In this document: piece after piece, positions 2,712 to 26,684 of the stretch
Numbering within the stretch: position 1 is the stretch's first letter
How the letters are laid out: each line of letters begins with the position of its first letter
Origin: Candidatus Binatia bacterium
GTDB lineage: Bacteria > Desulfobacterota > Binatia > Bin18
Direction: 5' to 3'
DNA length: 36,784 nucleotides
Assembly: GCA_041487975.1 (NCBI GenBank)
Contig: JBGPOI010000003.1
Location: 1 to 36,784 of the forward strand
Notes under the pieces: generated by a model
Seen by the model: only the letters and a program-made list of their open reading frames with translations
The model's database searches: none
What the model was told of the DNA's origin: nothing
Made by a program: the position numbers and the translations under genes

Positions 2712-4370
2712 TCACTCGATGTATCCCAAATCTCTGAGGCGTTCTTCAATCTGACGCGCTTCCCCGGCATCAAGCCCTGTCGTCGCAGAGAGGCCGGTGC
2801 TGGTGGGCGACCCGAGCTGCACTGGCTGGGTGCTGAGGTGCTCCCCGGTAAAGAGGTCGGTTAGGACCTTGCCGTCCATATCGCTGGGAATGGGCTGACC
2901 TTGCAAGTACAGAATCGTCGGCGCGATATCGTAATGCGTCGCGTTGGCCACTGTCGCGCCCCGTTTGATGGACGGCCCGCACGCGATCAGGATGCCCTCT
3001 GAGCGATGAACGCCATACCACCCTTGCCCGAGTCCACCGCGAGGTGGTGGTTCGATCACGATGGACTGGCCGTTCGCGTGATAGCCTAATCCATTTCTCA
3101 TCACTGTCTCGTCCCACTCAATCACTAAATCAGCTGCCTGTTCCGCATACGGTCCACGATAGAGATCTTCGCGTCGATAGATACCGCGAATGAGACGGTC
3201 AGCGGAGAGCGGATCCGTCAAGCCCCATAAGATCTCCCGCACCTCTTCTCGCAGGCGCTCATAGTCCCGGTCTGGGACTATACCTTCCGGTTGCCGCCCC
3301 TGGAGATTGATATAAACTCGACCTCCAATTGGACTGGCGAATACTCGAGTTTGCGACCATTCGATTCCTCCATAGGTAGACTCAGTGACGGCCTGGAGGC
3401 GAATTTTCGGCAAGGCCTGAGCTAGATGGAGTTGCAGTCGGGGGGGAAGGTATCGTCGCCCGAAAAGCAAGAGGTGCTTGAGCACCTTGCCCGTCAAGCG
3501 ATTTCCCCCTTTGCGGTACCGGAGGAATCCCAAGCGTGCTAAGAGCGCGTTCAATCCACCCCAGTTTGAGCGTAGCGGTCCAAATCCGTGATCGGACAGC
3601 ACCAGCACCGTTGTGTTCGCATCAATATGTCTGAGCACCTCGCCCAGCTGCGCGTCAATGTGTTGATAGAGTTGGCGCAGAGGTATCCAGCCGGGATGCT
3701 CAGCAGAGACCGGCTCGTGTGGCCAGTAGTAATGCTGCATGCGGTCCGTGGCGACAAAGACAGCCATCACCGCGTCCCAGGGATAGCTCTCCATCAAGTA
3801 CAGGAGAGCGCGGGCACGGGCCTCCACCATCTGTTTCACTGACAGTGGCATCTGCCGAGGCGCCCGTTGGCTTACCTCTTTCAGGTTTGCGACATCAATG
3901 ACGTAGTCGATGCCAACGCGCCGTAGCTGGTCGTACAGGCCAGGAGGATGGGTAAAGCCAGGGCTGTGGATGCCAGGTGTGTCCATGCCGCTCAACATAA
4001 AACCATTGATGGGGTCGGCTGGGTAACTGATGGGGACGTTGATGACGCCGACTGTTTGCCCGGCTGCGCTGAGTAAGCGCCAGAATGGGTCTTTGCGGCG
4101 ATCGGCGGCCGTAATCGGGTGCCACGTCTGACCACGCTGGGACGGGGCGTCGCCAAAATCATAGACGCCGTGCTGGCCGGGGTTATAACCGGTAACGATG
4201 GAACTCCAGGCGGCAGCGCTGTTCATATTGGGCCAGGCCGGCAAGCGTCCGTGAACACCGTGTTCCATCAGCTTGGTCAAGTGGGGCAGATACCCCGCCT
4301 GCGCCCAGGGCGTGACGAGGTCAAACGTCGCGCCATCCAGACCAATAATAAGGGTGCGTGTTCTACTCAT
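2712..4370 (-). CDS. alkaline phosphatase superfamily protein (type I phosphodiesterase/nucleotide pyrophosphatase-like)
   Basis: IIGLDGATFD, SAAAWSSIVTGYNPGQHGVYDF, LSDHGFG, GVHRSEGILI, DIAPTIL and C-terminal ERLRDLGYIE. Start taken at MSRTRTLIIG. Confidence 0.88.
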   Translation of the reverse strand: MSRTRTLIIGLDGATFDLVTPWAQAGYLPHLTKLMEHGVHGRLPAWPNMNSAAAWSSIVTGYNPGQHGVYDFGDAPSQRGQTWHPITAADRRKDPFWRLLSAAGQTVGVINVPISYPADPINGFMLSGMDTPGIHSPGFTHPPGLYDQLRRVGIDYVIDVANLKEVSQRAPRQMPLSVKQMVEARARALLYLMESYPWDAVMAVFVATDRMQHYYWPHEPVSAEHPGWIPLRQLYQHIDAQLGEVLRHIDANTTVLVLSDHGFGPLRSNWGGLNALLARLGFLRYRKGGNRLTGKVLKHLLLFGRRYLPPRLQLHLAQALPKIRLQAVTESTYGGIEWSQTRVFASPIGGRVYINLQGRQPEGIVPDRDYERLREEVREILWGLTDPLSADRLIRGIYRREDLYRGPYAEQAADLVIEWDETVMRNGLGYHANGQSIVIEPPPRGGLGQGWYGVHRSEGILIACGPSIKRGATVANATHYDIAPTILYLQGQPIPSDMDGKVLTDLFTGEHLSTQPVQLGSPTSTGLSATTGLDAGEARQIEERLRDLGYIE

Positions 4371-4384
4371 AGAAGTGGGACCTT

Positions 4385-5269
4385 TCACCTGCGCAGCGGG
4401 CGAATCCCTAGCGATTCGGGATCCGGCAAATCCCGGGCCGCCGGCTCGAGCCGGCAATAGTCGGCGAAAGTCATCAGTTCAGGATTGGTCCAGAATTTAT
4501 CCACGATTTGCCGGTATGGCGAAGTTGGGTTTTTCTCTAACTGATAGACACCACTCCCCCGATCTTTTTTCATCCCCTTCACGTGAAAAAAGAGAAACCC
4601 AACGAATGAATGGATCAACCAGCGGGTGCGCAAGACTTCAACTCGGGGATGATGACGAAAGGTGTGTCGGCTGCCTACCGGCCAAAAGCCGATGTCTCGC
4701 TTCCCCCCAACGCTGGGTCTGGGCTTGAGCACATAAATCTTGCCATCCTCATCCCACAAATTAACACCGCTGAACCACCAATAGCCGCGCTTCCACGGTG
4801 ACCGCCACCAGGACAGCGTTCCAGGTTTGCTGCGCCGCAACCGATCCACTACTCGTCCCAGGGGCTCCGGTGCGGCGATCGTATCACCGTCCCACTTAAC
4901 ACACACTTGATACGAGGCCTTGCTCAAGGCAAAGTTGTAGTAATACACTAAACTGCTCAGGTGGTGAGCCGGAAGGGTGCGGTGTTGATCGCTGCCTTGC
5001 GGAAACACTTCAGGTACATAGTGAAAAGCCTTAACTCGCTGGGGTTCGCACTTGGCAAATTTCTCAACGATTTCCGGGGTGCGATCAGTGCACTGGTTAT
5101 ACACGATGACGAACTCGTCAAAGAAGGGCAGGATGGAGTTGAGAGCTGCTTCGACAAAGTCTTCCTCGTTCCTCAAGCGCAATATCGCAGAGATTCCACA
5201 CTTCTTTCTGCCGGGAGAGAAATCTTCTGGAGTGAAAGTTGGGTGCTGCACGGTTTCAATCATAGACAA
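4385..5269 (-). CDS. GT-A fold glycosyltransferase (GT2/CgtA-like)
   Basis: ISAILRLRNEEDFVEAALNSILPFFDEFVIVYNQCTDRT N-terminus and a KWDGD DxD motif. Confidence 0.75.
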   Translation of the reverse strand: MSMIETVQHPTFTPEDFSPGRKKCGISAILRLRNEEDFVEAALNSILPFFDEFVIVYNQCTDRTPEIVEKFAKCEPQRVKAFHYVPEVFPQGSDQHRTLPAHHLSSLVYYYNFALSKASYQVCVKWDGDTIAAPEPLGRVVDRLRRSKPGTLSWWRSPWKRGYWWFSGVNLWDEDGKIYVLKPRPSVGGKRDIGFWPVGSRHTFRHHPRVEVLRTRWLIHSFVGFLFFHVKGMKKDRGSGVYQLEKNPTSPYRQIVDKFWTNPELMTFADYCRLEPAARDLPDPESLGIRPLRR

Positions 5270-12200: not shown

Positions 12201-14318
12201 CGCCAAGGTCAGAGGGGAGACGATGACCTGGCTTGGTTCTCCCTCTCTGGCAGGAAAGATCGTCCGCAAAACTTCGTGGCGACGGAGGATCTCATTAAGA
12301 CTTTGCTCCAGCACGGGTACATTCAGTCGGCCGGTGAAGCGAAAAATTACCGGGCGGTTGTAAACCGACTCACCAGGCTCCCAGCGATTGAAGAACCATA
12401 GCCGCTGCTGGGCATAGGACAAAGGCAAGGTGCGGTCCCGAGGAACAGTCTCGATCGACGGCAACGGTGAGTACCGGACCGTCTGACGCAGGCTCTCGAT
12501 GCGTTTGGCTATCCCAGCCACAGTGGCCGTCGCAAAGAAGTCAAGGAAAGAGAGTTCCACCTGCAGGGCTTGGCGCACCCGGGAAAGAACCTGGGAAACC
12601 AGAATGGAATCTCCACCCAACCGGAAAAAGTGATCGTGAATGCCCACCGACTCAACGCCGAGAACCTCAGCCCAGATCGCGGCCAGTTACTCTTCGACCA
12701 GCGTCCGCGGCGCGGTGTACTGGGCGTTCCCATTCGCTTCGCCGGACGCCGTAAGGCCCAGCTTTTCGGCCAGCCCTAGGCGTTGCACCTTGCCGGTCGG
12801 GCCTTTGGGAATCTCCTCCACGATGAGCACCTGACGCGGCACCTTAAAATCGGCCAAGCGCGCGGCAGCAAACTCCTGAATGTCTCTGGCAGTAATGGAG
12901 GTCCGCTCGCGCAGCACAACGGCCGCGGCGACCTCCTCACCCAGCACATCATGCGGGATGGCAAAAGTGACCGCCTCAGCCACCGCCGGATGATTCATGA
13001 GCATCTCGTCGACTTCACGAGGTGAAATTTTTTCCCCGCCACGATTGATGATTTCTTTGAGGCGGCCGGTGAGGAACAGATAGCCCTCAGCATCCAGGTA
13101 GCCCTGATCACCCGTCCGGAACCAGCCGTTGATAAAGGCGTTTTCGTTAGCCGCGGGATTGTTCTCGTAACCCTGGGTGACGTTCGCTCCGCGGATCACA
13201 ACCTCTCCCAATTCACGCGGTGGCAACAAGCGGCCCGCCTCATCCATGATGGCCACCTCCAGTCCTACCGCAACACCAACCGAACCAACCTTCCGCTGAC
13301 GCGGCGGTAACGGATTGCTCACTATCTGGAGGGATGCCTCTGTCATGCCATAAGCCTCAATGACAGGAGCGTGAAACACACGTTCTAACTCCGCTATCGC
13401 CTGCGGCGGCAAGGCTCCCGCAGAAGAGCGAATCAAGCGCAGCGGACAGCGCGCAATGATCTTATGATGGGCAGCCGCCCGGGCCAGAATCGCTTGGTGC
13501 ATAGTGGGGACGGCTGTATACCAAGTGGGATGAAACTCGTTCAGCCAGGCAAAGAATTCACGCGCGTGAAAACCCGGCGTGCAGACCACACTAGCGCCGG
13601 CCAGCAGCGACGATAGCACTGTTCCTATGAGGCCCAGGCCGTGAAACAGGGGCATCACGTTCAGGCAGCGGTCACCCTCACCGAGTGCGAGAGTCACTCG
13701 AAGGTTATGAGCCGCCGCACAGATATTCGTGTGGGTCAGTGGGACAATTTTCGGCCGCGAGGTCGTGCCTGACGTGTGCAGCACGAACGCCACCTCGTTA
13801 GGTTGAGCGAACCCACCCTGTGCCGGAGACGCAGGATCCCCACCGGTCAACGTGAAGATACCGGCCTCGGCGTCTAACACCGGCGAGAGTTCGATGATCG
13901 AGAGGCCGCGCGCTTGGGCAACGGCCCTGGCCGGCGAGTCGAGTCCGGCTTGAATGAGCAGCGCTTTCGCCCGCAAATCCGACAGATAAAAGTCAAACTC
14001 GTCGGCGCGATAGGCGGGATTGAGCGGAGCCGCCGTAGCGCCGGCGGCAACGGCTAAAAAGGCGACCGCCATCTCGGGCCCATTGGGGAGTACCAGTGCC
14101 ACACGATCGTGGCGTCCCAGGCCTATAGTATTGAGCATCTTCACCGTATCGCTGACGTGAGCGTGCAGGCGCCCATACGTCAGGGCTCTGCGCTCAGGAG
14201 CCAGGCTGGCGAGCGCCTGAGGCGCTCGCCAGCCTGGGTTGCTAGCAAATGAAAGACGCTCAAGTCCTGTTTCATATCGTTCTCCCAGCAGACACGAGCA
14301 AAGGGGGGAACCGGTCAT
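9201..14318 (-). pseudogene. NRPS with A(acyl-CoA-ligase-like)-T-C-A-T architecture, interrupted by an in-frame TAA
   Basis: ORFs 12687..14318 and 9201..12647 share one frame, joined by [37 protein letters not shown] (TAA 12687-12689). A1 HTSGTTSRPK/FRTGDQG, T1 GGDS, C HHIVYDGWS, A2 YTSGSTGNPKG/NAYGPSE/LYRTGDL, T2 GGHS; no TE or R domain. Confidence 0.9.
14201..14237. repeat. perfect 17-bp inverted repeat with 3-nt spacer in the NRPS 5' end
   Basis: CCAGGCTGGCGAGCGCC-TGA-GGCGCTCGCCAGCCTGG. Confidence 0.9.
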
Positions 14319-18462: not shown

Positions 18463-19731
18463 TCAGTGGTCTCGCCAGCCGCTGCGCATGCCGGTGACAT
18501 GCCGCACGGCGGAATCGACGGTCATCGCTCCGTACAACATCCCGGCAAGCGGCAGTGTCCAACATCGTATGCCCGGCAAAGCAAAGAAGCGCATTGCCGG
18601 ACGGTAAATCACCGCCATGATTACCCAAGCGCACCAGCCTTCAACTACTAATGCGCTAGTCCAAGCGAAGGAGACCGCTGGCCAGCCCAGCATGCTGGCC
18701 AGCGCTGCGCTGATTCCGCCCATCACCCACAGTGGCGGCAGCAGAAACATCAGCAGCATCCCGATCACGGTCCCAACCAACCGCACCCACGAGTAGCGTA
18801 ACTCGGTAAATGCCGTGCGGCGGACCATCACCCAGATGGCCGCGAGCGAATCATACACGCGTAGGCTCTCGACTGCAGAACGGCTGAGGGCCAGTTGAAT
18901 GGGCTCATTCAGCGCTTTGATTTGCCGCGCCAGGTTCACATCGTCGATGATCTTATCCTTGATGCACGAGAAGCCGCCGGCCCGCTCAAGCGCGGAGGTT
19001 GCCAGCAAGACGCATCCGCCCGCCGCAGCCGCTACGGCACTGCGCCGTGTATTCACTTGCCGCATAGGATAGAGCAGGTTGAAGAAAAAGACGAACGGAG
19101 GAATAAGCAGACGCTCCGCGTGAGAGACACAGCGCAAACGCGCCATCCGGCTATTTAAGGCGAGGTGGTCTCGCTCGCTCTCAGCCACTAAACGTCTAAG
19201 CGATTCTGGTGCGTGGTGAATGTCGGCGTCAGTCAGCAAAAGATATTTTGGCTTGCCAGTGACCACTGAAGGACCTTCTCCCCTCGACAATCCGCAATCC
19301 GCTTCGGCCTGGCTTTTCCATTGGCCATGCAATCCGCAATGGGAAGCGCCTTGCGCAAGTGCCCATACTTTGCCCACCCAACCTTGCGGCAAAGCCGCGC
19401 CGGAGATCACTGTCAGTCGCTCGGCCGCGCCGGATTCCTCGGCCAACCTGCGGGCAATGTCGGCCGTACCGTCCGCGGAGCGATCGTCAATAACAATAAC
19501 GGCGAATTCGCCAGGGTAATCTTGCTGCAGGAGCGAGGGCAGGGTGCGCGGCAAAGATTCACTCTCGTTGCGCGCGGGGACCAGAATGCACACCGCAGGC
19601 CAAACCTGCGGCTCAGGGGGAAGCGCTTCATCGTCACCCACGGGTTGAAAATCCCACGGGCGCGCGGGGTGAAAGAGAACGCCCAACCAGATTAGCATAG
19701 AGATGAAACCGAGAGAAAACAGAATGATCAA
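18463..19731 (-). CDS. hpnB: hopanoid-associated glycosyltransferase HpnB-like
   Basis: VPARNE, DDRSADGT, LPQGWVGKVWA, LLTDADI, AERLLIPPFVFFFNLLYP, AAAAGGCVL, IIDDVNLA and MVRRTAFTEL. The TTG start overlaps the hpnA stop. Confidence 0.88.
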   Translation of the reverse strand: MIILFSLGFISMLIWLGVLFHPARPWDFQPVGDDEALPPEPQVWPAVCILVPARNESESLPRTLPSLLQQDYPGEFAVIVIDDRSADGTADIARRLAEESGAAERLTVISGAALPQGWVGKVWALAQGASHCGLHGQWKSQAEADCGLSRGEGPSVVTGKPKYLLLTDADIHHAPESLRRLVAESERDHLALNSRMARLRCVSHAERLLIPPFVFFFNLLYPMRQVNTRRSAVAAAAGGCVLLATSALERAGGFSCIKDKIIDDVNLARQIKALNEPIQLALSRSAVESLRVYDSLAAIWVMVRRTAFTELRYSWVRLVGTVIGMLLMFLLPPLWVMGGISAALASMLGWPAVSFAWTSALVVEGWCAWVIMAVIYRPAMRFFALPGIRCWTLPLAGMLYGAMTVDSAVRHVTGMRSGWRDH

Positions 19732-20765
19732 TCTTGCCGATCCCCGATCCCTGATGCTTGATCCCTGACCCCTTTCACGTACCCGTTTTCCGCAAACCAC
19801 CGCACCGCCTTGCGCAGTGCGTCGCGGACCGGCGTTTGCGTCCAACCTAATTCACGCACAGCCTTACTGGGGTCGAAGAACATCTTCTTCTTGCTGAGTT
19901 TCACGCCTACCGGGGGGGCAAACGGCTCGCGGCCAGGAATCAAGCGAGCCAAGGCCGCATCCATATAGGCCACGCCGAGAGCGAGAGCGTAGGGCACTTT
20001 GAAGCGCGGCGCCGATCGGCCGGTGAGTTCGGCGAGCAGCGACAGGATTTGCCGCAAGGTAAGGTTTTCATGGCCAAGAAGGTACTTCTCCCCCACCCGT
20101 CCCTTTTCGGCCGCCAGCAAGTGCCCACGGGCAACATCTTCCACGTCCACGAGATTGAGACCGGTATCGACGTAGCCAGGCATCCGGCCGTTGAGAAAAT
20201 CGACAATCAGCTTGCCGGTGGGAGTCGGCTTGAGATCGCCCGTGCCGACCGGGGTGCTGGGGTTCACGATCACTACCGGTAACCCTTCAGCCGCATAGCG
20301 CAGGGCGACCTGCTCAGCCAGAAACTTACTCCGTTTATAATGACCGACCATGTCAGAGAGTGACACCGGGGTCTCTTCGTTGCCAGGAGTACCGTCCTCA
20401 GGCAATCCCAGAGTCGCCACCGAGCTGGTATAGATGACTTTCTCGACTCCACCGTCCCGCGCCGCGGTGAGCACGTTTTCCGTCCCAGTGACGTTGCACT
20501 CGTACATCTCGTGTTTATGCCGCACCCAGAGCTTGTACAGCGCGGCGACGTGGTACACCTGCGCACATCCAGCGGTCGCCCGGCGGAGCGAATCGAGATC
20601 GCGTACATCCCCGTGATAAATCTCGACCGCCAGGTCGCGCAGGTTGCGGCGGTCGGCGGTCGGCCGCACGAGAAGCCGTACTTCATGGCCGGCGTGGACT
20701 AACTCACGCGCCACCCTGCCGCCGACAAAGCCCGTCGCGCCAGTGACCAGCACTCGCATAAGCAT
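19728..20765 (-). CDS. hpnA: hopanoid-associated NAD-dependent epimerase HpnA
   Basis: VTGATGFVG, HVAALY, YTSSVATLG, GHYKRSK and VNPSTPVG.GDLKPTPTGKLIVDFLNGRMPGYVDTGLN. Confidence 0.9.
   Translation of the reverse strand: MLMRVLVTGATGFVGGRVARELVHAGHEVRLLVRPTADRRNLRDLAVEIYHGDVRDLDSLRRATAGCAQVYHVAALYKLWVRHKHEMYECNVTGTENVLTAARDGGVEKVIYTSSVATLGLPEDGTPGNEETPVSLSDMVGHYKRSKFLAEQVALRYAAEGLPVVIVNPSTPVGTGDLKPTPTGKLIVDFLNGRMPGYVDTGLNLVDVEDVARGHLLAAEKGRVGEKYLLGHENLTLRQILSLLAELTGRSAPRFKVPYALALGVAYMDAALARLIPGREPFAPPVGVKLSKKKMFFDPSKAVRELGWTQTPVRDALRKAVRWFAENGYVKGVRDQASGIGDRQD
19737..19771. repeat. degenerate heptamer tandem repeat (5 copies) in the hpnA 3' tail
   Basis: CCGATCC CCGATCC CTGATGC TTGATCC CTGACCC. 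Confidence 0.7.
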
Positions 20766-20808
20766 CTCCCCCTAGAGAGGTTCACGGCGGGAGTCAAGGG
20801 GGCAGGAT

Positions 20809-20837
20809 TTGACTCTCTCTTGCTGGCTCCTTAAGGT
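20809..20837 (+). promoter_or_regulatory. candidate sigma70 promoter for the 20861 ORF
   Basis: TTGACT-N17-TAAGGT. The -35 is one arm of a GAGTCAA-N11-TTGACTC inverted repeat. Confidence 0.4.
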
Positions 20838-20860
20838 GCAAAAAAAGTCAGGAGGACGCC

Positions 20861-21106
20861 GTGGTCGCTACCGATTTGATCGGGCAGGATCTCGATAAAC
20901 AAATCATCGTCACGCAGAAGCGTTTCCAAAAGGCGATGAAAGTGCGCTTGGCGCGTATGAGCTTGGAGACCAAGGAGCGTTACTTTGCCGTTCTTTCCGT
21001 GCTGGTGGCAAAACTGGAAGACCCCGACAAGCCGTTGCGCGAAGTCCTGCAAGACGTTGTTATCGAGTCGGCACCCTATATCGCGCAAGAACTGACTGAA
21101 TCTTGA
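20861..21106 (+). CDS. small helical hypothetical protein (81 aa)
   Basis: Strong AGGAGG RBS before the GTG, amphipathic helical sequence, divergent from hpnA. Confidence 0.75.
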   Translation: MVATDLIGQDLDKQIIVTQKRFQKAMKVRLARMSLETKERYFAVLSVLVAKLEDPDKPLREVLQDVVIESAPYIAQELTES

Positions 21107-21107
21107 T

Positions 21108-21670
21108 ATGCTGAAGAAAAGCGCGAGGGCCGTCATGCATCGACTTGCTGACAGGTGGACCTGGCCACAGATACTGAAACGAGCCGCTGAAGTGCGGCGC
21201 GAGGAAGGACTCAAGAGTCTGTGGTTCAAAATCCTCGGTGAGACGGTGTACCGCCGGGCGTGCTGCTTGAGCGTCTTCTTCACGAACCCATCGTGGAGAT
21301 CACGCCTCGCCTGCGGGTAGAGATTGGCACACTCAAGGAAGCGGAGGTAAATGAATATATTGGCTTGCATCCCGAAGCCGACCCGTCTGATATCCGCCAT
21401 CGGATCAAGAGCGGACAGATGAATATTATGGCTACGAGGGGTTCACTGCTCCTAGCTTCCGCGGCCAGAACATCGCGCTGGCTCTTTACTCATATATGAT
21501 TCGCTATCTGCGAGATGCCGGCTACCAGCGATCGGTAGCAGTCATCATGCCTGAGAACAAACTGGCTTTCCGCCCCCTTGAAAGAATTGGCTACCGTCCT
21601 TTCGGTATGATGGGCTACGTCAAGATTGGTTCGTGGCGCTATGACTTTTGCCGAGTCAAGCCTAGCGCAC
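21108..21670 (+). pseudogene. fragmented GNAT-like acetyltransferase gene
   Basis: Three consecutive ORF pieces in different frames: EEGLKSLWFKILGETVYRR / LLERLLHEPI..DIRHRIKSGQ / MIRYLRDAGYQRSVAVIMPENKLAFRPLERIGY. The last piece resembles a GNAT C-terminal N..A...E..GY motif. Confidence 0.5.
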
Positions 21671-21928
21671 GCCTTGGTCGTCCTGGAAGATCTCCGCGCT
21701 GTTCCGGGAGTCGTGCAGGTACAGATCATTCAGGAAGACCTGCGCTGTTTCGTGCTCCGAGTCGTCTGTGCGGGCGACACCGATTGGGGGCAGGCAAACC
21801 AAAGACTGGACGCCGCCATGCGTATAGTGTTTGGGAATGACATTTCACTCGGAACAGAGCGGCTAGACTCCATTCCCTCCGAGCCAGGAGGCAAAGTCCG
21901 GGCAGTCATTTCACGATACCGTCAATAA
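21665..21928 (+). pseudogene. C-terminal fragment of a phenylacetate-CoA ligase/CapK-like protein
   Basis: VPGVVQVQIIQED..FVLRVV...LDSIPSEPGGKVRAVIS is typical of the family C-terminus; the rest of the gene is absent. Confidence 0.6.
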
Positions 21929-21972
21929 CCGCTTTTCTGTATTTTTCTTCCCGGCGAGGGGGATCTGCGTGA

Positions 21973-22038
21973 ATGGTATACACTCACGTGTTGACCTGTG
22001 GGGGTCGCGGGGTGTTCAGTCCAGCGGATCGGCTCTAG
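21973..22038 (+). pseudogene. intI: C-terminal remnant of integron integrase IntI
   Basis: Translates to MVYTHVLTCGGRGVFSPADRL*, matching the IntI tail (TTMIYTHVLNRGGxGVxSPLDxL) that carries the catalytic Tyr. The upstream sequence is not integrase-like. Confidence 0.85.
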
Positions 22039-22194
22039 GAATGCGATACGATATGAAGAGCGGATACGCTGCGGGCTGATATCGGGATATCCCGCCAAAA
22101 TAGCGGCCTTGGTCGGAGAGAAAAGGCTTGGCAAGATTGAGGTGACTAGTGGATACTGCTCAGGATTTTGATGTTTTCGCGTGTACCCGCTTGG

Positions 22195-22239
22195 CGAAAT
22201 ATCCCGCCGAGAGGGCAGCGGTATACTCAAGCGTTAGGT
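22195..22239 (+). mobile_element. probable attI site (core GTTAGGT at 22233-22239)
   Basis: GTTRRRY core complementary to the R'' (ACCTAAC) of attC-1. No AAC-containing inverse core within 150 bp upstream, so it is not an attC. It lies between the intI remnant and cassette 1. Confidence 0.65.
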
Positions 22240-22257
22240 AGAAAAGGAGATTCCCAA

Positions 22258-22863
22258 TTGTTAACGTGTTGCAGGGTTGCTGAACATCCGTGGGACCGAT
22301 TTAAGGTCGATCTTTTTTGGCGACCGCGGCAGCTTCGATGCCTCATCGTCGGAGAGAACCCTGGAGACGTTGAGTCAGCGTATTTCTATGAGGCTCCCGG
22401 AAGCTATGCTAACGACCCAGTAGTTGTACGACGTTGTCTACTTCGTGGTCTTCATAGCCAAAAGCTTCTTACAACAGCGACGCTCGAAGGATTTCGAGAT
22501 GCTGGATTCTTGTTCGATCATGCGCTCCGCTGTCCCTTATCGTCAGAAGACGTTAAGAAAGAACGCAGTGCAGCAATGCGATATGCCTCAAGTCGGGTTC
22601 AACACTCAGCCCATCTTCTTGCCCCGCTCTCCCAAGCTCCCATCGTATGGGTCATGGGACATCTTGCCAATAACGCTGTAGCGAACCTGACCGGAGATTT
22701 CCCAAAGGAAAAACGAAAAATTTCGTGTGATCCATTTCCAGGCGAAGCTGCTCCTGGATCACGGTTTTTCATATCTGAGTATTTCCACCGATGGAACAAA
22801 GAACATTGGACCGAAATTTGTGCAGCTTTCGCACGATTCGCTCGGGCGAGAGGTGCCTTTTGA
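22258..22863 (+). CDS. integron cassette 1: hypothetical protein, possibly uracil-DNA-glycosylase-like fold
   Basis: AAAAGGAG RBS and TTG just after the core site; RCLIVGENPG..YFY motif, FLFDHALRCP, IVWVMG. Stop 7 nt before attC-1. Confidence 0.7.
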   Translation: MLTCCRVAEHPWDRFKVDLFWRPRQLRCLIVGENPGDVESAYFYEAPGSYANDPVVVRRCLLRGLHSQKLLTTATLEGFRDAGFLFDHALRCPLSSEDVKKERSAAMRYASSRVQHSAHLLAPLSQAPIVWVMGHLANNAVANLTGDFPKEKRKISCDPFPGEAAPGSRFFISEYFHRWNKEHWTEICAAFARFARARGAF

Positions 22864-22870
22864 CGACTCC

Positions 22871-22969
22871 ACCTAACTCTCCGTTGCACCTGACCGCCGC
22901 CCGCTTGCGGATCTGAGTAAACGTGAGAGGACACAATTGGGCGGCGGCAGGTGATCGGTAGCGTTAGGT
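22871..22969 (+). mobile_element. attC site 1 (99 bp)
   Basis: R'' ACCTAAC, spacer, GTTGCACCTGACCGCCGCCC...GGGCGGCGGCAGGTGATC with extrahelical bases, R' GTTAGGT. Confidence 0.92.
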
Positions 22970-22982
22970 GCAACGAAGAACT

Positions 22983-23474
22983 ATGCATCATCCAACCTAT
23001 ATGCCTCGTCCGTCAGCGATCGGTATCATCCTGGCGGCGTCCGATATATCCGGCCTAACCGTCCTAGGCGAACTTCCTGAGTCGGTTGTACAGTGGTGGG
23101 CTCTACCTGAGCGCGTAACAATGGTTCAGGCGGACAACCAAGTCATGTTCCACTGGGCAGCCCATCCTGGTCCTGGGGGATTGCGGGCCGATACCGCGAC
23201 GTACCAATGGGTGGGAAGGTGTTGTCGCGCCATCGTCGCGAATCCATATGCACTATTGGCTGGGGATGAGTGTGAAAGGTGCCAGATCATTGGGAGGGTT
23301 GAACCACCCAGTCCTGAGTATTCGACTATTGAATATTTCAGACTTCCGCTGAAGTATGTTCCCAGCACCCGAGCGGCCTCTGGTAATCCAGAGATCTGGC
23401 TGGATACTTACATTCCACACTCACAGGACTCGATCGAGACTTATTTAAAAAAAGCGGTGATTGTGGGCACCTAA
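22983..23474 (+). CDS. integron cassette 2: hypothetical protein
   Basis: The ORF fills the inter-attC interval and its TAA stop lies inside R'' (ACCTAAC) of attC-2. No family recognised. Confidence 0.7.
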   Translation: MHHPTYMPRPSAIGIILAASDISGLTVLGELPESVVQWWALPERVTMVQADNQVMFHWAAHPGPGGLRADTATYQWVGRCCRAIVANPYALLAGDECERCQIIGRVEPPSPEYSTIEYFRLPLKYVPSTRAASGNPEIWLDTYIPHSQDSIETYLKKAVIVGT

Positions 23475-23532
23475 CCTGGCGCCGCACACGGACGCGCCGC
23501 AAGCGGCGCGCCGGTGAGCTTGGTCGTTAGGC
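23469..23532 (+). mobile_element. attC site 2 (64 bp)
   Basis: ACCTAAC-CTGGC-GCCGCACACGGACGCGCCGC-AA-GCGGCGCGCCGGTGAGC-TTGGTC-GTTAGGC. Confidence 0.92.
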
Positions 23533-23569
23533 ATCCCAAGAAACAAATCAATCAAAGGAGGGAGTTCCG

Positions 23570-24598
23570 ATGCGAGGCCAGCAGACACGTTTTATCCTCA
23601 TTATGTTAACGACCGTTGCCATTTTCGCGATTACGGTAGTGTCAGTCGCAACCGCAGGCAAGTCCAAGGCAGCCAAGATCGCAGATCTTGGCGCGGTGCA
23701 CCAGGGAAGCGACGGAGGAGCTCTTGGCATCAACAAGCACGGCAAGGTGGTGGGCGCAGTTGTCGCTCTCAACGGTACCCACGAGGCGTTCCTATATTCC
23801 CATGGGGTGGAAACAGACCTTGGTACGCTAGGCGGTAGCACTAGCTGCGCGTTCGGTATCAACGGGCGTGGTCACGTGGTGGGAACCGCTGGAACGAGCG
23901 CTGGCGGGTCCCATGCCTTTTTATACACGACCGGGGACATGCAAGACCTTGGCACGCTCGGTGGTTCGGTGAGCGGCGGATATGCAATCAATGACAGCGA
24001 TGAAGTCGTGGGTTACTCATCTCTGGCGGGAGACCAAGAGTTTCATCCGTTTCTGTACGCTAACGGCCATATGATTGATCTCGGCAGTCTTGGTGGCGAC
24101 GGGATGGCCCGTGGCATCAATAAACTAGGCCAAATTGTTGGATTCTCATTCCAGTCCGGTAACCAAAACTATCACGCATTTGTGTACCAGAACGGGATCA
24201 TGAGCGATCTTGGCACGCTCGGTGGCGTCTTCAGTTACGCTCGTGCGATCAACAACCGGGGTAAGATTGTCGGGTATGCAGACCCAGGCGACGGGACGGC
24301 GCATGCATTCTTGTATAGCAATGGGAGCATGACCGATATCGGCACTTTTGGATTTACAGGTAGTGACGCACATGCCATCAACGATCTTGGCCAAGTAGTG
24401 GGCACCGTGCGGCAAGTTTCAGGCGATACACTGGCATTTCTGTTTGATCGGGGTGAGGGCATATTGCTCAATAGTCTTCTGCCTGCAGACTCCGGTTGGA
24501 GTCTCACCGGTGCCTCCGGCATCAACAGCAGTGGCGTCATCGTCGGTGTCGGGTACCACAACGGCGAATTGAGAGCTTATTCCTTGACGCCGCCTTAG
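23570..24598 (+). CDS. integron cassette 3: secreted HAF-repeat protein
   Basis: Signal peptide, then about 7 repeats of HAFLY..G.M.DLGTLGG..S.A..IN..G.VVG; AAGGAG RBS. Confidence 0.9.
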   Translation: MRGQQTRFILIMLTTVAIFAITVVSVATAGKSKAAKIADLGAVHQGSDGGALGINKHGKVVGAVVALNGTHEAFLYSHGVETDLGTLGGSTSCAFGINGRGHVVGTAGTSAGGSHAFLYTTGDMQDLGTLGGSVSGGYAINDSDEVVGYSSLAGDQEFHPFLYANGHMIDLGSLGGDGMARGINKLGQIVGFSFQSGNQNYHAFVYQNGIMSDLGTLGGVFSYARAINNRGKIVGYADPGDGTAHAFLYSNGSMTDIGTFGFTGSDAHAINDLGQVVGTVRQVSGDTLAFLFDRGEGILLNSLLPADSGWSLTGASGINSSGVIVGVGYHNGELRAYSLTPP

Positions 24599-24703
24599 CG
24601 CGGGTCTGACCGGCCCGATCTTATTTAGTGCCAGGCACTCGTATTCATTCGGCGGGGAAAAGGTGTCAGGAACCGTTTCCCCAGACCCTGGCACCGGTGC
24701 AGG

Positions 24704-24791
24704 GCCTAACATCGCACTGGAGCCGACCGCTTCCAGCCTCCGCTCGTGCCTCGCTCCGGCTTCCAGCGGCGGCTCACCGCGGGCGTTAGAC
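24704..24791 (+). mobile_element. attC site 3 (88 bp)
   Basis: GCCTAAC-ATCGC-ACTGGAGCCGACCGCT...AGCGGCGGCTCACC-GCGGGC-GTTAGAC. Confidence 0.9.
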
Positions 24792-24923
24792 CCGGCCAAG
24801 CAAGAACCCAAGGGGAACGGTCACAAAGGGAAGAAACAAGAAACAGTGACGGTTCTAGCAGCGTCTGCAGAAGCGCGAGGAGGTTTGCCTGTTCGCCGAA
24901 AAAGGCAATGAAAGGAGAGCACA

Positions 24924-25796
24924 GTGGAGATCGGCAAGTTGGGAGCCTTTTGTTTTCTTGACGCCATGGGTGCGGAGGAGAGTGCGGCGTTCTGCCGCCG
25001 AGTCGAGCGGATGGGCTATAAGGTCCTGTGGTCGCCCGAAGCGTGGGGCCGCGACCCCTTCGCGCACGGCGGGTATCTGCTCGCCAAAACCGATCGGCTC
25101 ATCTACGCCACCGGCATCGCTAACATCTGGGTGCGCGATCCCATGACGATGGCGATGGCGGCCAAAACTCTGGCCGAAATCGCGGAGGACCGTTTCATCC
25201 TGGGGATCGGGGTCAGTCATCGCTCTCTGGTCGAGGATCTCCGCGGCCATAAATACACCAAGCCCTACAGCTACATGAGTGAGTACATCCTAAGGATGAA
25301 GTCGGCATTGTACCGGGCCGTAGCGCCTAAGACGGAGCCGCCGCTAGTGATCGCGGCGCTGCATCCCAAGATGCTGGCGCTGGCGGCGCGTGAAGCGCAT
25401 GGTACTCACACCTACCTCTGTTTGCCAGAGCATACCAAGCGCGCACGAGAGGTGATGGGACCCGACGCCTGGGTCTGTCCCAGTGTGATTGTTATTCTTG
25501 AGCATGATGCGGCCAAGGCGCGAGCGCGGGCGCGGCAACATCTGAGTTTCTACGCGTATCAAGAGAACTACCAGCGAATCCTGCTCGCGCAGGGATTTAC
25601 ACGAGCAGATTTCGAGAATGGCTGTAGCGACCGCCTGATCGACACGCTGGTCGCCTGGGGGAGTGAGGAGCAGATCCGCAAGCGGATCGACGCTCACTTG
25701 ACCGCCGGTGCCAACCACGTCTGCCTGATGCCGTTACGGTGCGATGAGAGCAATCTCCCCGACGAGCGGGCGCTAGAAGCTTTTTCCCCGCGGTGA
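24924..25796 (+). CDS. LLM-class (luciferase-like) oxidoreductase, probably F420-dependent
   Basis: ERMGYKVLWSPE, ATGIANIW.RD, RFILGIGVSH, AALHPKMLALA, GTHTY..PEHT..AR and SDRLIDTLVAWG. Confidence 0.9.
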   Translation: MEIGKLGAFCFLDAMGAEESAAFCRRVERMGYKVLWSPEAWGRDPFAHGGYLLAKTDRLIYATGIANIWVRDPMTMAMAAKTLAEIAEDRFILGIGVSHRSLVEDLRGHKYTKPYSYMSEYILRMKSALYRAVAPKTEPPLVIAALHPKMLALAAREAHGTHTYLCLPEHTKRAREVMGPDAWVCPSVIVILEHDAAKARARARQHLSFYAYQENYQRILLAQGFTRADFENGCSDRLIDTLVAWGSEEQIRKRIDAHLTAGANHVCLMPLRCDESNLPDERALEAFSPR

Positions 25797-26357
25797 AGGA
25801 GGCGAGACCTGGCAGGGGTCGTGCGGGTCTTTGAAGTCGATCACCCGGCTACTCAGCAATGGCAGCAGACAAGGAAGTAGGATTTGCGCAGGTCTGGGAC
25901 TTTGGGCCAGAAGCAGCGAACGCGCACTATTTTGCTGGTCGTGCAGACGGGTTGCGTGTCGCACCCCTGACGCATCTCATGAAAGCTCGGGTCGGTGATG
26001 TTTCCTAGCCACAGGGGGAAGAGACCAGCAGCTCGGTTAAGTGGCGCTGCTCTTATCGTGGAACCAACCGGGACGCCAACTCAGCCCGTCGCCCTCACGC
26101 GCGCAGGGACAAAGTACGCTCTGGTGATTCAGCACGAGGGAGAGGGGTTTTGTCGATTGAACAAGAGTTCGCGGTTCTGCACAGATATCAAGGGCGTACT
26201 CACCGAACCGGGCGTCCACCTAGCGCAGCATTTCCTGCCGGGCTCGTCAGGTCCTCAATTCTTCACTGATAATTCTTATCTGTTGTCATTCCCTACTAGG
26301 TTGCCCTTGGGCTTTTTGCTATTTACAGAGGACCATTTACAACAAGGAGGAAGACTC

Positions 26358-26684
26358 ATGGCAGACAATATTGTGCAGGTCTCCGACGACAGTTTTGACA
26401 GCGAAGTGCTCAAGTCGCCCGTGCCGGTGCTCATCGACTTCTGGGCGCCGTGGTGCGGGCCGTGCCGGGCGGTCGCGCCGATTGTCGACGAACTCGCGGG
26501 CGAGTATGCCGGCAAACTCAAGATCGTCAAGATGAACGTGGACGACAACCCGCGCACTCCCGCCCGCTACGGCGTGCGTGGCATTCCCAATTTGATTCTG
26601 TTCAAGAACGGTGAGGTGCAGCAACAGATCGTCGGCGCCGTACCCAAGGCGCATCTGGTCAAAGCCATTTCCACCGTGGTGTAA
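26358..26684 (+). CDS. trxA: thioredoxin
   Basis: [14 protein letters not shown] and GVRGIP; AAGGAGG RBS before ATG 26358. Confidence 0.97.

Follow-up and report, generated by a model that had tools for sequence, protein, structure and literature searches.

We report that a locus on a 36,784-nt contig of a Candidatus Binatia bacterium is very probably an integrase-less remnant of a chromosomal integron in which the integrase gene, intI, shares its reading direction with the cassettes. With similarly high confidence, we take this remnant to consist of 21 intI codons, a complete attI site, three complete gene cassettes and a fourth cassette from which the attC site has been deleted. The contig (C3), which was analysed over its whole length and is called the window below, belongs to a metagenome bin of 669 contigs and 5.12 Mb, with a completeness of 89% and an estimated contamination of 2.24%. 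We refer to this genome as G000 and, where a contig is named without a genome, it is one of G000; G001 is from the same genus, the other G codes are further relatives, and L codes are excerpts of the relatives' contigs. An earlier note, made from the letters of this DNA, had described an IntI tail, a lone core and three gene–attC units here, and all of these are present (Table 1). The locus is a cluster of attC sites lacking integron-integrases (CALIN), a known kind of element, with two less common features, the intI stub and an intact attI head.

Judged by its closest relatives in sequence, the 21-codon peptide is a genuine IntI C-terminus. It agrees at 18 of 21 positions with the last residues of the full-length G013:C33 IntI, and the two share their stop; the G013:C33 protein, of 362 amino acids, scores 477.1 bits with the IntI profile TIGR02249 (cut-off 265) and 151 bits with XerC (cut-off 335). 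When the stub peptide was compared with the genome translated in six frames, four places matched at E < 1, namely its own tail, the tail of the C55 IntI (15/21 identical, E 7e-6), C571 (11/21, E 0.13) and C411, where a match of 16 residues contains a stop (E 0.63). Across the whole genome, no match at this level fell on a contig carrying a non-IntI recombinase. The earlier note had allowed that the peptide might fit XerC/D or phage integrases better; it matched IntI and not Xer-type recombinases. The tyrosine of the stub lies in a conserved YTHVL motif, which we take to be the position of the catalytic tyrosine of tyrosine recombinases.

The start of the stub is as sharply marked as its end. 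A TGA stands in frame directly before its ATG (21970–21972), and DNA homology to the relatives' intI begins at about 21972; the sequence upstream is unalignable, with no further intI homology upstream of the stub. The full-length IntI reading frames of G013:C33, G015:C23, G062:C83 and G063:C108 stop where the stub stops, and the IntI of G002:C628 is partial. G062:C83 and G063:C108 share the tail alone with the window, and the gene that follows it there is of the C55 type. A complete integron has an intI for a full integron integrase, recognised by TIGR02249 or by PF00589 together with the IntI-specific insertion; with TIGR02249 we found no IntI open reading frame (ORF) on the 36.8-kb contig besides the 21-codon stub. 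The element itself is unable to catalyse recombination.

The three sites that follow the array genes are attC sites. We searched the window, with filters off, using a calibrated covariance model (R1) built from nine long attC sites, none of them from the window (C23, C55, C96, C401 twice, C423, C383, C331 and C657); these training sites were drawn from a crude whole-genome palindrome screen, and attC-like palindromes occur on many contigs. In the R1 consensus fold, an unpaired spacer separates a 6-bp R helix from an L helix and the left arm carries two unpaired bases (columns 18 and 25), and 10 of the 30 base pairs in the alignment show compensatory changes. A model that scored none of the sites would have spoken against the earlier note; this one, made outside the window, ranked attC1, attC2 and attC3 as its top three matches, ahead of 16.1 bits at 14204, and its matches reproduced the lengths of 99, 64 and 88 nt given there. 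All three sites score higher on the plus strand than on the minus strand (Table 1). Across 158,913 nt searched with filters off, that score at window position 14204 was also the highest outside any array that we judged to hold cassettes. We note that this place is a perfect GC-rich hairpin of 31 nt (14204–14234, GGCTGGCGAGCGCCT/AGGCGCTCGCCAGCC) that scores the same on either strand, and probably a terminator-like stem. A 17.5-bit match at L067 8347–8445 lies on the array strand of G010:C22.

Inverse cores frame each of the sites. The core consensus of attC sites is RYYYAAC for R'' and GTTRRRY for R', and on the coding strand R'' is followed by R' in attC1 (ACCTAAC...GTTAGGT), attC2 (ACCTAAC...GTTAGGC) and attC3 (GCCTAAC...GTTAGAC), each placed after its ORF. 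The window contains 13 matches to GTTAGRY, eight of which fall inside 22233–24791, a segment of 7% of its length; seven of these eight are predicted cores, and the eighth (23053–23059, minus strand) lies within the ORF of cassette 2. When folded as bottom-strand DNA, all three sites form the R helix and carry single-base bulges on the 3' arm (R''–L''), so that extra-helical bases are present in the three individual folds as well as in the family consensus. Folding of the bottom strands, a check proposed by the earlier note, gave a significant result for attC1 (z −6.19, with none of 200 shuffles as good), and attC2 and attC3 did not fold significantly better than their shuffles.

The note had also read the differing attC sites as a sign of diverse donors, which we do not uphold: the subfamilies of attC1 and attC3 are each common within the same bacterial family, and the pool from which the cassettes come appears to be local, not exotic. 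Sites resembling attC3, with 78–88% identity, occur in G000:C481, G001, G002, G007 and G013. In contigs from two of the sediment-metagenome runs described below (X2 and X3), the attC3 region (24640–24846) has a summed contig depth of 96 and 211, respectively, compared with about 3–5 in neighbouring bins, which indicates that the attC3 subfamily is very abundant in those metagenomes; many loose contig ends in this region run into other sequences. Two other approaches to the sites were set aside. A screen for core patterns and arm complementarity found attC1 alone when strict and missed attC3 when relaxed, and the covariance model was used instead; a MAFFT alignment of long and short attC sites together was structurally not sensible and was replaced by the nine long sites.

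The element between the stub and the first cassette is homologous to one found behind intI in relatives, which supports its earlier designation as attI. In G013:C33, G015:C23 (where it runs to the contig end) and G002:C628, it comes immediately after the intI stop and lies on the strand of intI; the intI upstream is full-length in the first two and partial in the third (residues 227–384). In the window it stands next to the intI stub at the head of the array. A DNA query spanning 21973–22245 matched 12 of 55 genomes of the family, at 23 distinct places, and the attI element itself is about 70–75% identical to those of G000:C16 and G000:C282 and to copies in 11 other family genomes. A full-length intI accompanies four of the 23 places, a partial one accompanies one and stubs (21 or 31 amino acids, tblastn) accompany two; most have no detectable IntI within 1.5 kb, and several of the solo copies lie at contig ends (L041, L042, L051 and L062), where an intI could be unassembled. 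G000 holds at least three heads without intI (the window, C16 and C282). An attC lies on the same strand within 1.5 kb downstream at 5 of 22 related attI loci, and within that distance upstream at none of the 22. The crossover in the window would fall at G22233/T22234, and the repeat motifs are presumably IntI-binding sites. The −35-like hexamer reads TTGACA in most attI copies, and 7 of 8 aligned copies retain the two promoter hexamers. An intI stub upstream of the C16 attI was not supported (alignment score 52, compared with a shuffle mean of 38.6, standard deviation 6.3 and maximum 63).

Circular cassettes are inserted by a crossover between G and TT, an established integron mechanism which predicts that the leading core of each cassette is complementary to its own R''. 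As the earlier note had claimed, this holds for cassettes 1 (GTTAGGT/ACCTAAC), 2 (GTTAGGTGC/GCACCTAAC) and 3 (GTTAGGC/GCCTAAC). The rule discriminates at two junctions only: the start of cassette 2 matches its own R'' context at 9 of 9 positions and the R'' of the attC that is closed there at 8 of 9, and the leading core of cassette 3 agrees with its own R'' at 7 of 7 and with that of attC2 at 6 of 7. We propose that IntI inserted the cassettes one by one at the G/TT of attI, newest first, and the pairing of a cassette's first six bases with its own R'' would be a consequence of insertion at this point. The attI promoter would transcribe the cassettes. Cassettes 1–3, which all retain recombination sites at both ends, could be excised by attC × attC recombination of the folded bottom strands, and reinserted, if IntI were supplied in trans, and mobilisation of this kind is plausible; the IntI of C55 would be a candidate, because its attC sites belong to the same family. 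Lacking a downstream attC of its own, cassette 4 would be fixed.

The cargo is environmental: a uracil-DNA-glycosylase (UDG)-like protein, a protein without a family match, a secreted HAF-repeat protein and an F420-dependent LLM-class oxidoreductase. No antibiotic-resistance family of Pfam or NCBIfam was matched by the cassette genes, consistent with the earlier statement that none of the cargo is a resistance gene. The product of cassette 1 is a weak look-alike of the uracil-DNA-glycosylase superfamily (PF03167, E 0.0081, 16.7 bits, under the cut-off of 24.3; Atlas lead 0.93–0.97). The ORF of cassette 2, the TAA stop of which falls within its R'' box, has no Pfam or NCBIfam match, and its Atlas scores (≤0.85) are leads only. 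Cassette 3 encodes a protein with six HAF repeats (TIGR02913 HAF_rpt, 241.5 bits) and a hydrophobic N-terminal stretch, and the ORF of cassette 4 scores 261.7 bits with TIGR03620 (cut-off 219.8).

Several of these genes behave like units when compared with other genomes and contigs. A copy of cassette 1, 73% identical, covers window positions 22231–22945 in G013:C28, almost from core to attC, and lies there between two attC matches, the downstream one of 47.3 bits and the upstream one of no more than 16.1 bits. A copy of cassette 4, 89% identical (window 24898–25812), is found in G010:C22, where an attC (81.1 bits) precedes it and a cut-off R''/L'' half-site follows, beside a 270-amino-acid ORF on the opposite strand (L067 ~4400–5260, minus), a suspected insertion-sequence transposase. 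The homology between the window and this copy ends where R'' should begin, which implies that cassette 4 has lost its attC. By this comparison, the LLM oxidoreductase gene after attC3 is a fourth cassette (24786–25812), and the earlier count of three cassettes is right for the gene–attC units and short by the attC-less one that follows them. In run X3, cassette 2 has a diverged copy (35 differences) that aligns over 22980–23532 alone, and the contig carrying this copy differs from the window on both sides. Unit-like behaviour is thus apparent for cassettes 1 and 4, which lie beside or between attC sites in other genera, and more weakly for cassette 2.

Several observations weigh against reading the locus as an integron remnant. 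Taken alone, the stub scores weakly with TIGR02249 (13.8 bits, E 0.095; model positions 294–315 of 315, and a cut-off of 265 for the full integrase of a complete integron), so that its identification leans on the pairwise comparisons and on its place ahead of attI. For attC2 (z −1.51) and attC3 (z −1.80), 15 and 9 of 200 shuffles, respectively, folded equally well, and the fold energies are not significant. The E-values of R1 are rough, by the tool's own statement, and R1 is a lineage-specific model that differs from the general attC model of IntegronFinder. The putative promoter agrees with the consensus at 9 of 12 positions, and four such sites occur in 5.4 kb where 2.8 are expected; we infer both its activity and the function of attI from conservation and position alone. 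The attI of the C55 integron differs from that of the window. In the contigs of four metagenome runs, no excised-cassette or empty-attI joint was present; contigs drop rare variants, and this absence says nothing on inactivity.

The remnant lies in a 5.2-kb island between an 81-amino-acid ORF and the thioredoxin gene. In the same-genus contig G001:C797, 99 nt take the place of window positions 21108–26312. We compared the stretch 18463–26684 with 30 relatives; the 81-amino-acid ORF (or hpnA) lies directly beside thioredoxin in at least 14 of them, including G001, and none of the 30 has a comparable insert at this site. The GC content is 0.49–0.57 within the island and 0.59–0.64 in the flanks. 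Neither a target-site duplication nor a core-like sequence was seen at the island ends. The remnant is bordered by gene debris on both sides. To its left, pieces of a broken GNAT-like gene in three frames run into the C-terminal ~87 codons of a gene resembling AMP ligases; the intact paralogues in G000:C342 are 51% and 52% identical to this debris at the protein level (tblastn) and stand in a different gene order. The paralogues match PF00583 and, weakly and under the cut-off, PF00501, and the fragments themselves have no family match. The ligase fragment has no match before the stub of G001:C674, where only ~250 nt are available. To its right, two pieces of a leucine-carboxyl-methyltransferase-like gene, separated by an internal deletion, align with a 317-amino-acid ORF in G007:C370 (25800–25871 with L121 2476–2547, and 25878–26022 with L121 2909–3052) that matches PF04072 (E 8.9e-44).

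The joins within the island were checked against contigs from four sediment-metagenome runs (X1–X4), one of which may be the source sample. Such contigs bridge, with 0–11 differences, the segments 20500–21327, 21057–21572, 21919–22239, 22109–22341, 24749–25789, 24789–26065 and 25872–26463, and they thereby cover the left junction, the debris/stub/attI and attI/cassette 1 joins, the passages from attC3 to cassette 4 and from cassette 4 to the debris, and the right junction. Contigs of X1, X2 and X3 have an extra T after 21258, within the broken GNAT-like gene, which may be a strain difference or an assembly error in the window; it would join the first two frame pieces and leave a further break near 21410–21500.

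The locus agrees with the published description of CALINs, at least two attC sites spaced under 4 kb apart without an integron integrase nearby (PMC4889954): its three attC sites lie on one strand within 1.9 kb, the array is small, and the 36.8-kb contig holds no IntI beyond the stub. In the parts of that survey that concern us here, about half of the CALINs have an IntI elsewhere in the genome, as does G000, and the absence of an antibiotic-resistance match is a further likeness (PMC4889954). The locus differs from a CALIN so described in keeping a recognisable intI stub and a whole attI head. The same parts of the survey record an intI pseudogene within 10 kb of 15 of 279 CALINs, with detection requiring more than 50% coverage of the profile (Cury et al. 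2016, PMC4889954). A 21-codon stub stays below 50% coverage and would be counted there as no pseudogene, and some 'orphan' CALINs may therefore be similar remnants. The locus bears in this way on the open origin of CALINs without a nearby intI pseudogene, and provides an example of an integron after integrase loss that retains the insertion site, a likely promoter and cassettes that are predicted to be excisable.

The stub, attI and the attC sites all lie on the plus strand, and intI, attI and attC sites are likewise co-oriented in G013:C33. Integrases co-oriented with their cassettes form the inverted integron-integrase group, of which Treponema offers an example and which is paraphyletic according to the part of the survey that treats it (Cury et al., PMC4889954), and co-orientation is therefore an arrangement and not a clade; unlike integrons of this orientation, the window copy has no working integrase. 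A close counterpart, G013:C33, resembles the window in its IntI C-terminus, GGGCTGATATCGGGATAT-type attI repeats, TTGACA/GATACT promoter and GTTAG core. It has two co-oriented attC matches downstream (26 and 19.2 bits), and the presence of intI, attI and co-oriented attC sites makes it a complete integron of this type. It differs in its full-length IntI, in having two copies of the first repeat block where the window has one, and in its cassettes, which by inspection alone appear to encode a toxin–antitoxin pair and an HU-like protein. The locus does not have the make-up of a sedentary chromosomal integron, which keeps a fixed place throughout a species or genus and a long array of homogeneous attC sites, as the site is empty in G001 and at least 13 other relatives, and the three attC sites have three lengths and belong to at least two subfamilies.

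How the integrase was lost allows for more than one account, as the island may have decayed on site after an integron had inserted or may have arrived already broken. That a complete integron once occupied this exact site and later lost all but 21 codons of intI to deletion is possible and, in our view, somewhat doubtful. The break is sharp, and the identity of the stub to a working IntI, 86% for protein and about 71% for DNA by our own count, points to a recent loss of function; intI pseudogenes near CALINs have precedent in the 15 of 279 cases of the survey section cited above (PMC4889954). Against this account, none of the 30 relatives has an integron or an insert at the site, the flanks being adjacent in at least 14, and the DNA left of the stub, made up of reordered GNAT and ligase pieces, does not represent an integron's upstream flank. 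At its right end, too, the array is broken, and a methyltransferase fragment is joined to it; a pre-broken mosaic fragment or repeated rearrangements would fit equally well. The earlier note saw a complete chromosomal integron turning into a CALIN. The locus is a CALIN already, and decay at the site is not supported, because the island is missing in relatives and unrelated gene fragments lie on both sides. An assembly artefact, in which a chimeric contig unites a piece of an integron with unrelated DNA through repeats, would be very improbable. The bin comes in 669 contigs with some estimated contamination, and attC repeats are known to mis-join assemblies (the attC3-like depth in two runs is 96–211 as opposed to about 3–5), but separately assembled contigs bridge the key joins with few differences, and the debris, at 50–52% protein identity to its paralogues, hence does not represent mis-joined copies.

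It would be less probable still, to the point of being negligible, that no integron is involved and that generic intergenic palindromic repeats happen to follow an IntI-like peptide that arose by chance. The fold energies of two of the three hairpins are unexceptional and the profile E-value of the peptide is high (0.095), but on C55 repeats of this family stand behind a genuine, intact intI and its attI, the repeats end in AAC/GTT cores with strand asymmetry, and the peptide shares its stop with real IntI and precedes the attI element that complete integrons of relatives carry at this point. We regard as unlikely a reading in which modules of stub, attI and promoter are kept and spread in the family as maintained satellite platforms that capture and express cassettes by means of an IntI elsewhere in the genome. 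It would accommodate the many attI places without IntI within 1.5 kb (most of 23, in 12 of 55 genomes), the three or more such heads in G000, the co-oriented downstream attC sites at 5 of 22 loci, the kept promoter hexamers, and the presence in G001:C674 (75% identity) of a stub and attI truncated at almost the same position. Speaking against it, several solo copies lie at contig ends, the debris on both sides and the loss of attC from the last cassette look like erosion, and a conservation of 70–75% is no higher than that of housekeeping neighbours (hpnB/hpnA compared with G001, 75%). In its strongest form, a 'distributed integron' in which attI heads, with or without a stub, form a self-standing and repeatedly copied module with a promoter and a short array, this proposal is drawn from fragmentary assemblies and strikes us as improbable. 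If true, several integrase-less attI platforms per genome would be loaded, unloaded and expressed through one IntI elsewhere, and the source of part of the unexplained CALIN population would be explained. An integron remnant without its integrase is the reading that we prefer to these alternatives.

Table 1 Features of the window and their coordinates
Feature	Position	Strand	Remarks
intI stub, 21 codons and stop	21973–22038 (TAG 22036–22038)	+	Translates to MVYTHVLTCGGRGVFSPADRL followed by the stop
attI element	22056–22239, ~180 nt	+	Homology to the element behind relatives' intI
attI direct repeats ATATCCCGCC	22087–22096, 22199–22208	+	Repeat search
Sigma-70-like promoter	TTGGCA 22128–22133, 18-nt spacer, GATACT 22152–22157	+	Points into the array
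attI core GTTAGGT	22233–22239	+	Also start of cassette 1
Cassette 1	22234–22963	+	ORF 22258 (TTG)–22863, 201 aa; AAGGAG 8 nt upstream; attC1
attC1	22871–22969, 99 nt	+	R1 89.2 bits, E 2.8e-25; minus strand 28.1 bits
Cassette 2	22964–23526	+	ORF 22983 (ATG) or 22968 (GTG) to 23474, ~163 aa; attC2
attC2	23469–23532, 64 nt	+	R1 22.8 bits, E 1.5e-4; minus strand 12.6 bits
Cassette 3	23527–24785	+	ORF 23570–24598, 342 aa, HAF-repeat protein; attC3
attC3	24704–24791, 88 nt	+	R1 31.6 bits, E 2.7e-7; minus strand 11.1 bits
R'' boxes	22871–22877, 23469–23475, 24704–24710	+	Core matches
R' boxes	22963–22969, 23526–23532, 24785–24791	+	Core matches
Cassette 4, attC lost	24786–25812	+	ORF 24924–25796, 290 aa, F420-dependent LLM-class oxidoreductase
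5.2-kb island	about 21108–26290		Between the 81-aa ORF and thioredoxin
Left debris, broken GNAT-like gene	~21108–21660	+	Pieces in three frames
Left debris, AMP-ligase-like gene, last ~87 codons	21662–21928	+	Fused to the GNAT-like pieces
Right debris, leucine-carboxyl-methyltransferase-like, two pieces, internal deletion	25800–26022	+	blastn to G007:C370
hpnB	18463–19845	−	Ordinary chromosomal neighbour
hpnA	19728–20765	−	Ordinary chromosomal neighbour
81-aa ORF	20861–21106	+	No family match; beside thioredoxin in many relatives, ~70% nucleotide identity
Thioredoxin	about 26361–26684	+	Ordinary chromosomal neighbour

Integron parts are found elsewhere in G000 and in the family. The genome search for an intact intI that the earlier note had suggested found one with TIGR02249, on C55 (4655–5599, minus strand; 475.7 bits, cut-off 265), which encodes an IntI of 384 amino acids. 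C55 carries attC sites at 3466–3564 and 1252–1350, and its attC used in training R1 scores 109.9 bits; its attI has the core GTTAGGA, preceded by four CATCTACnnATAGAA-like direct repeats, and is followed by a 161-amino-acid ORF. The integron on C55 (L001 280–2652, minus strand) is complete and represents a second type: like the window, it has attC sites of the same family and reads intI in the direction of its cassettes, and unlike the window, it has other attI repeats and another core, an extra small gene between intI and attI, and an IntI tail that agrees with the stub at 15 of 21 positions. Outside the window, R1 gave 33 further matches on 24 other contigs (36 were listed, one of them the reverse strand of a listed site), which indicates that this genome has a large and fragmented cassette complement.

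A third intI, found with the same profile on C9 (15176–16106, plus strand), is pseudogenised by four in-frame TAG stops and one frameshift. By eye, the stops stand where the C55 IntI has Y, F, Y and H, and the tail is unlike those of the other two types; this looks like ordinary decay rather than recoding. On C282 (2067–2564, minus strand), an internal intI fragment (model positions 196–292) is fused to a partial attI of the window type, from which the intI tail and the first repeat block have been deleted, with an attC at C282:1–100; this is another eroded head. Further intI C-terminal stubs occur at C571:1189–1251 (minus strand), in G001:C674 (L029 ~3345–3400, minus strand) and at G010:C39:41554–41615. 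The stubs of the window and of G001:C674 start within a few bases of the same codon (M-V/I-Y before THVL), and a shared break point, if true, would mean that the module was copied after truncation.

No Rfam family reached its gathering threshold in the window, and no attC family was among the Rfam matches, so that this search has no bearing on the sites. The surrounding chromosome also contains ORFs that by eye appear to resemble rodA and a PBP2-type transpeptidase. Given its recurrence beside thioredoxin in relatives, the 81-amino-acid ORF at the left border of the island is a real small gene, as yet unnamed.

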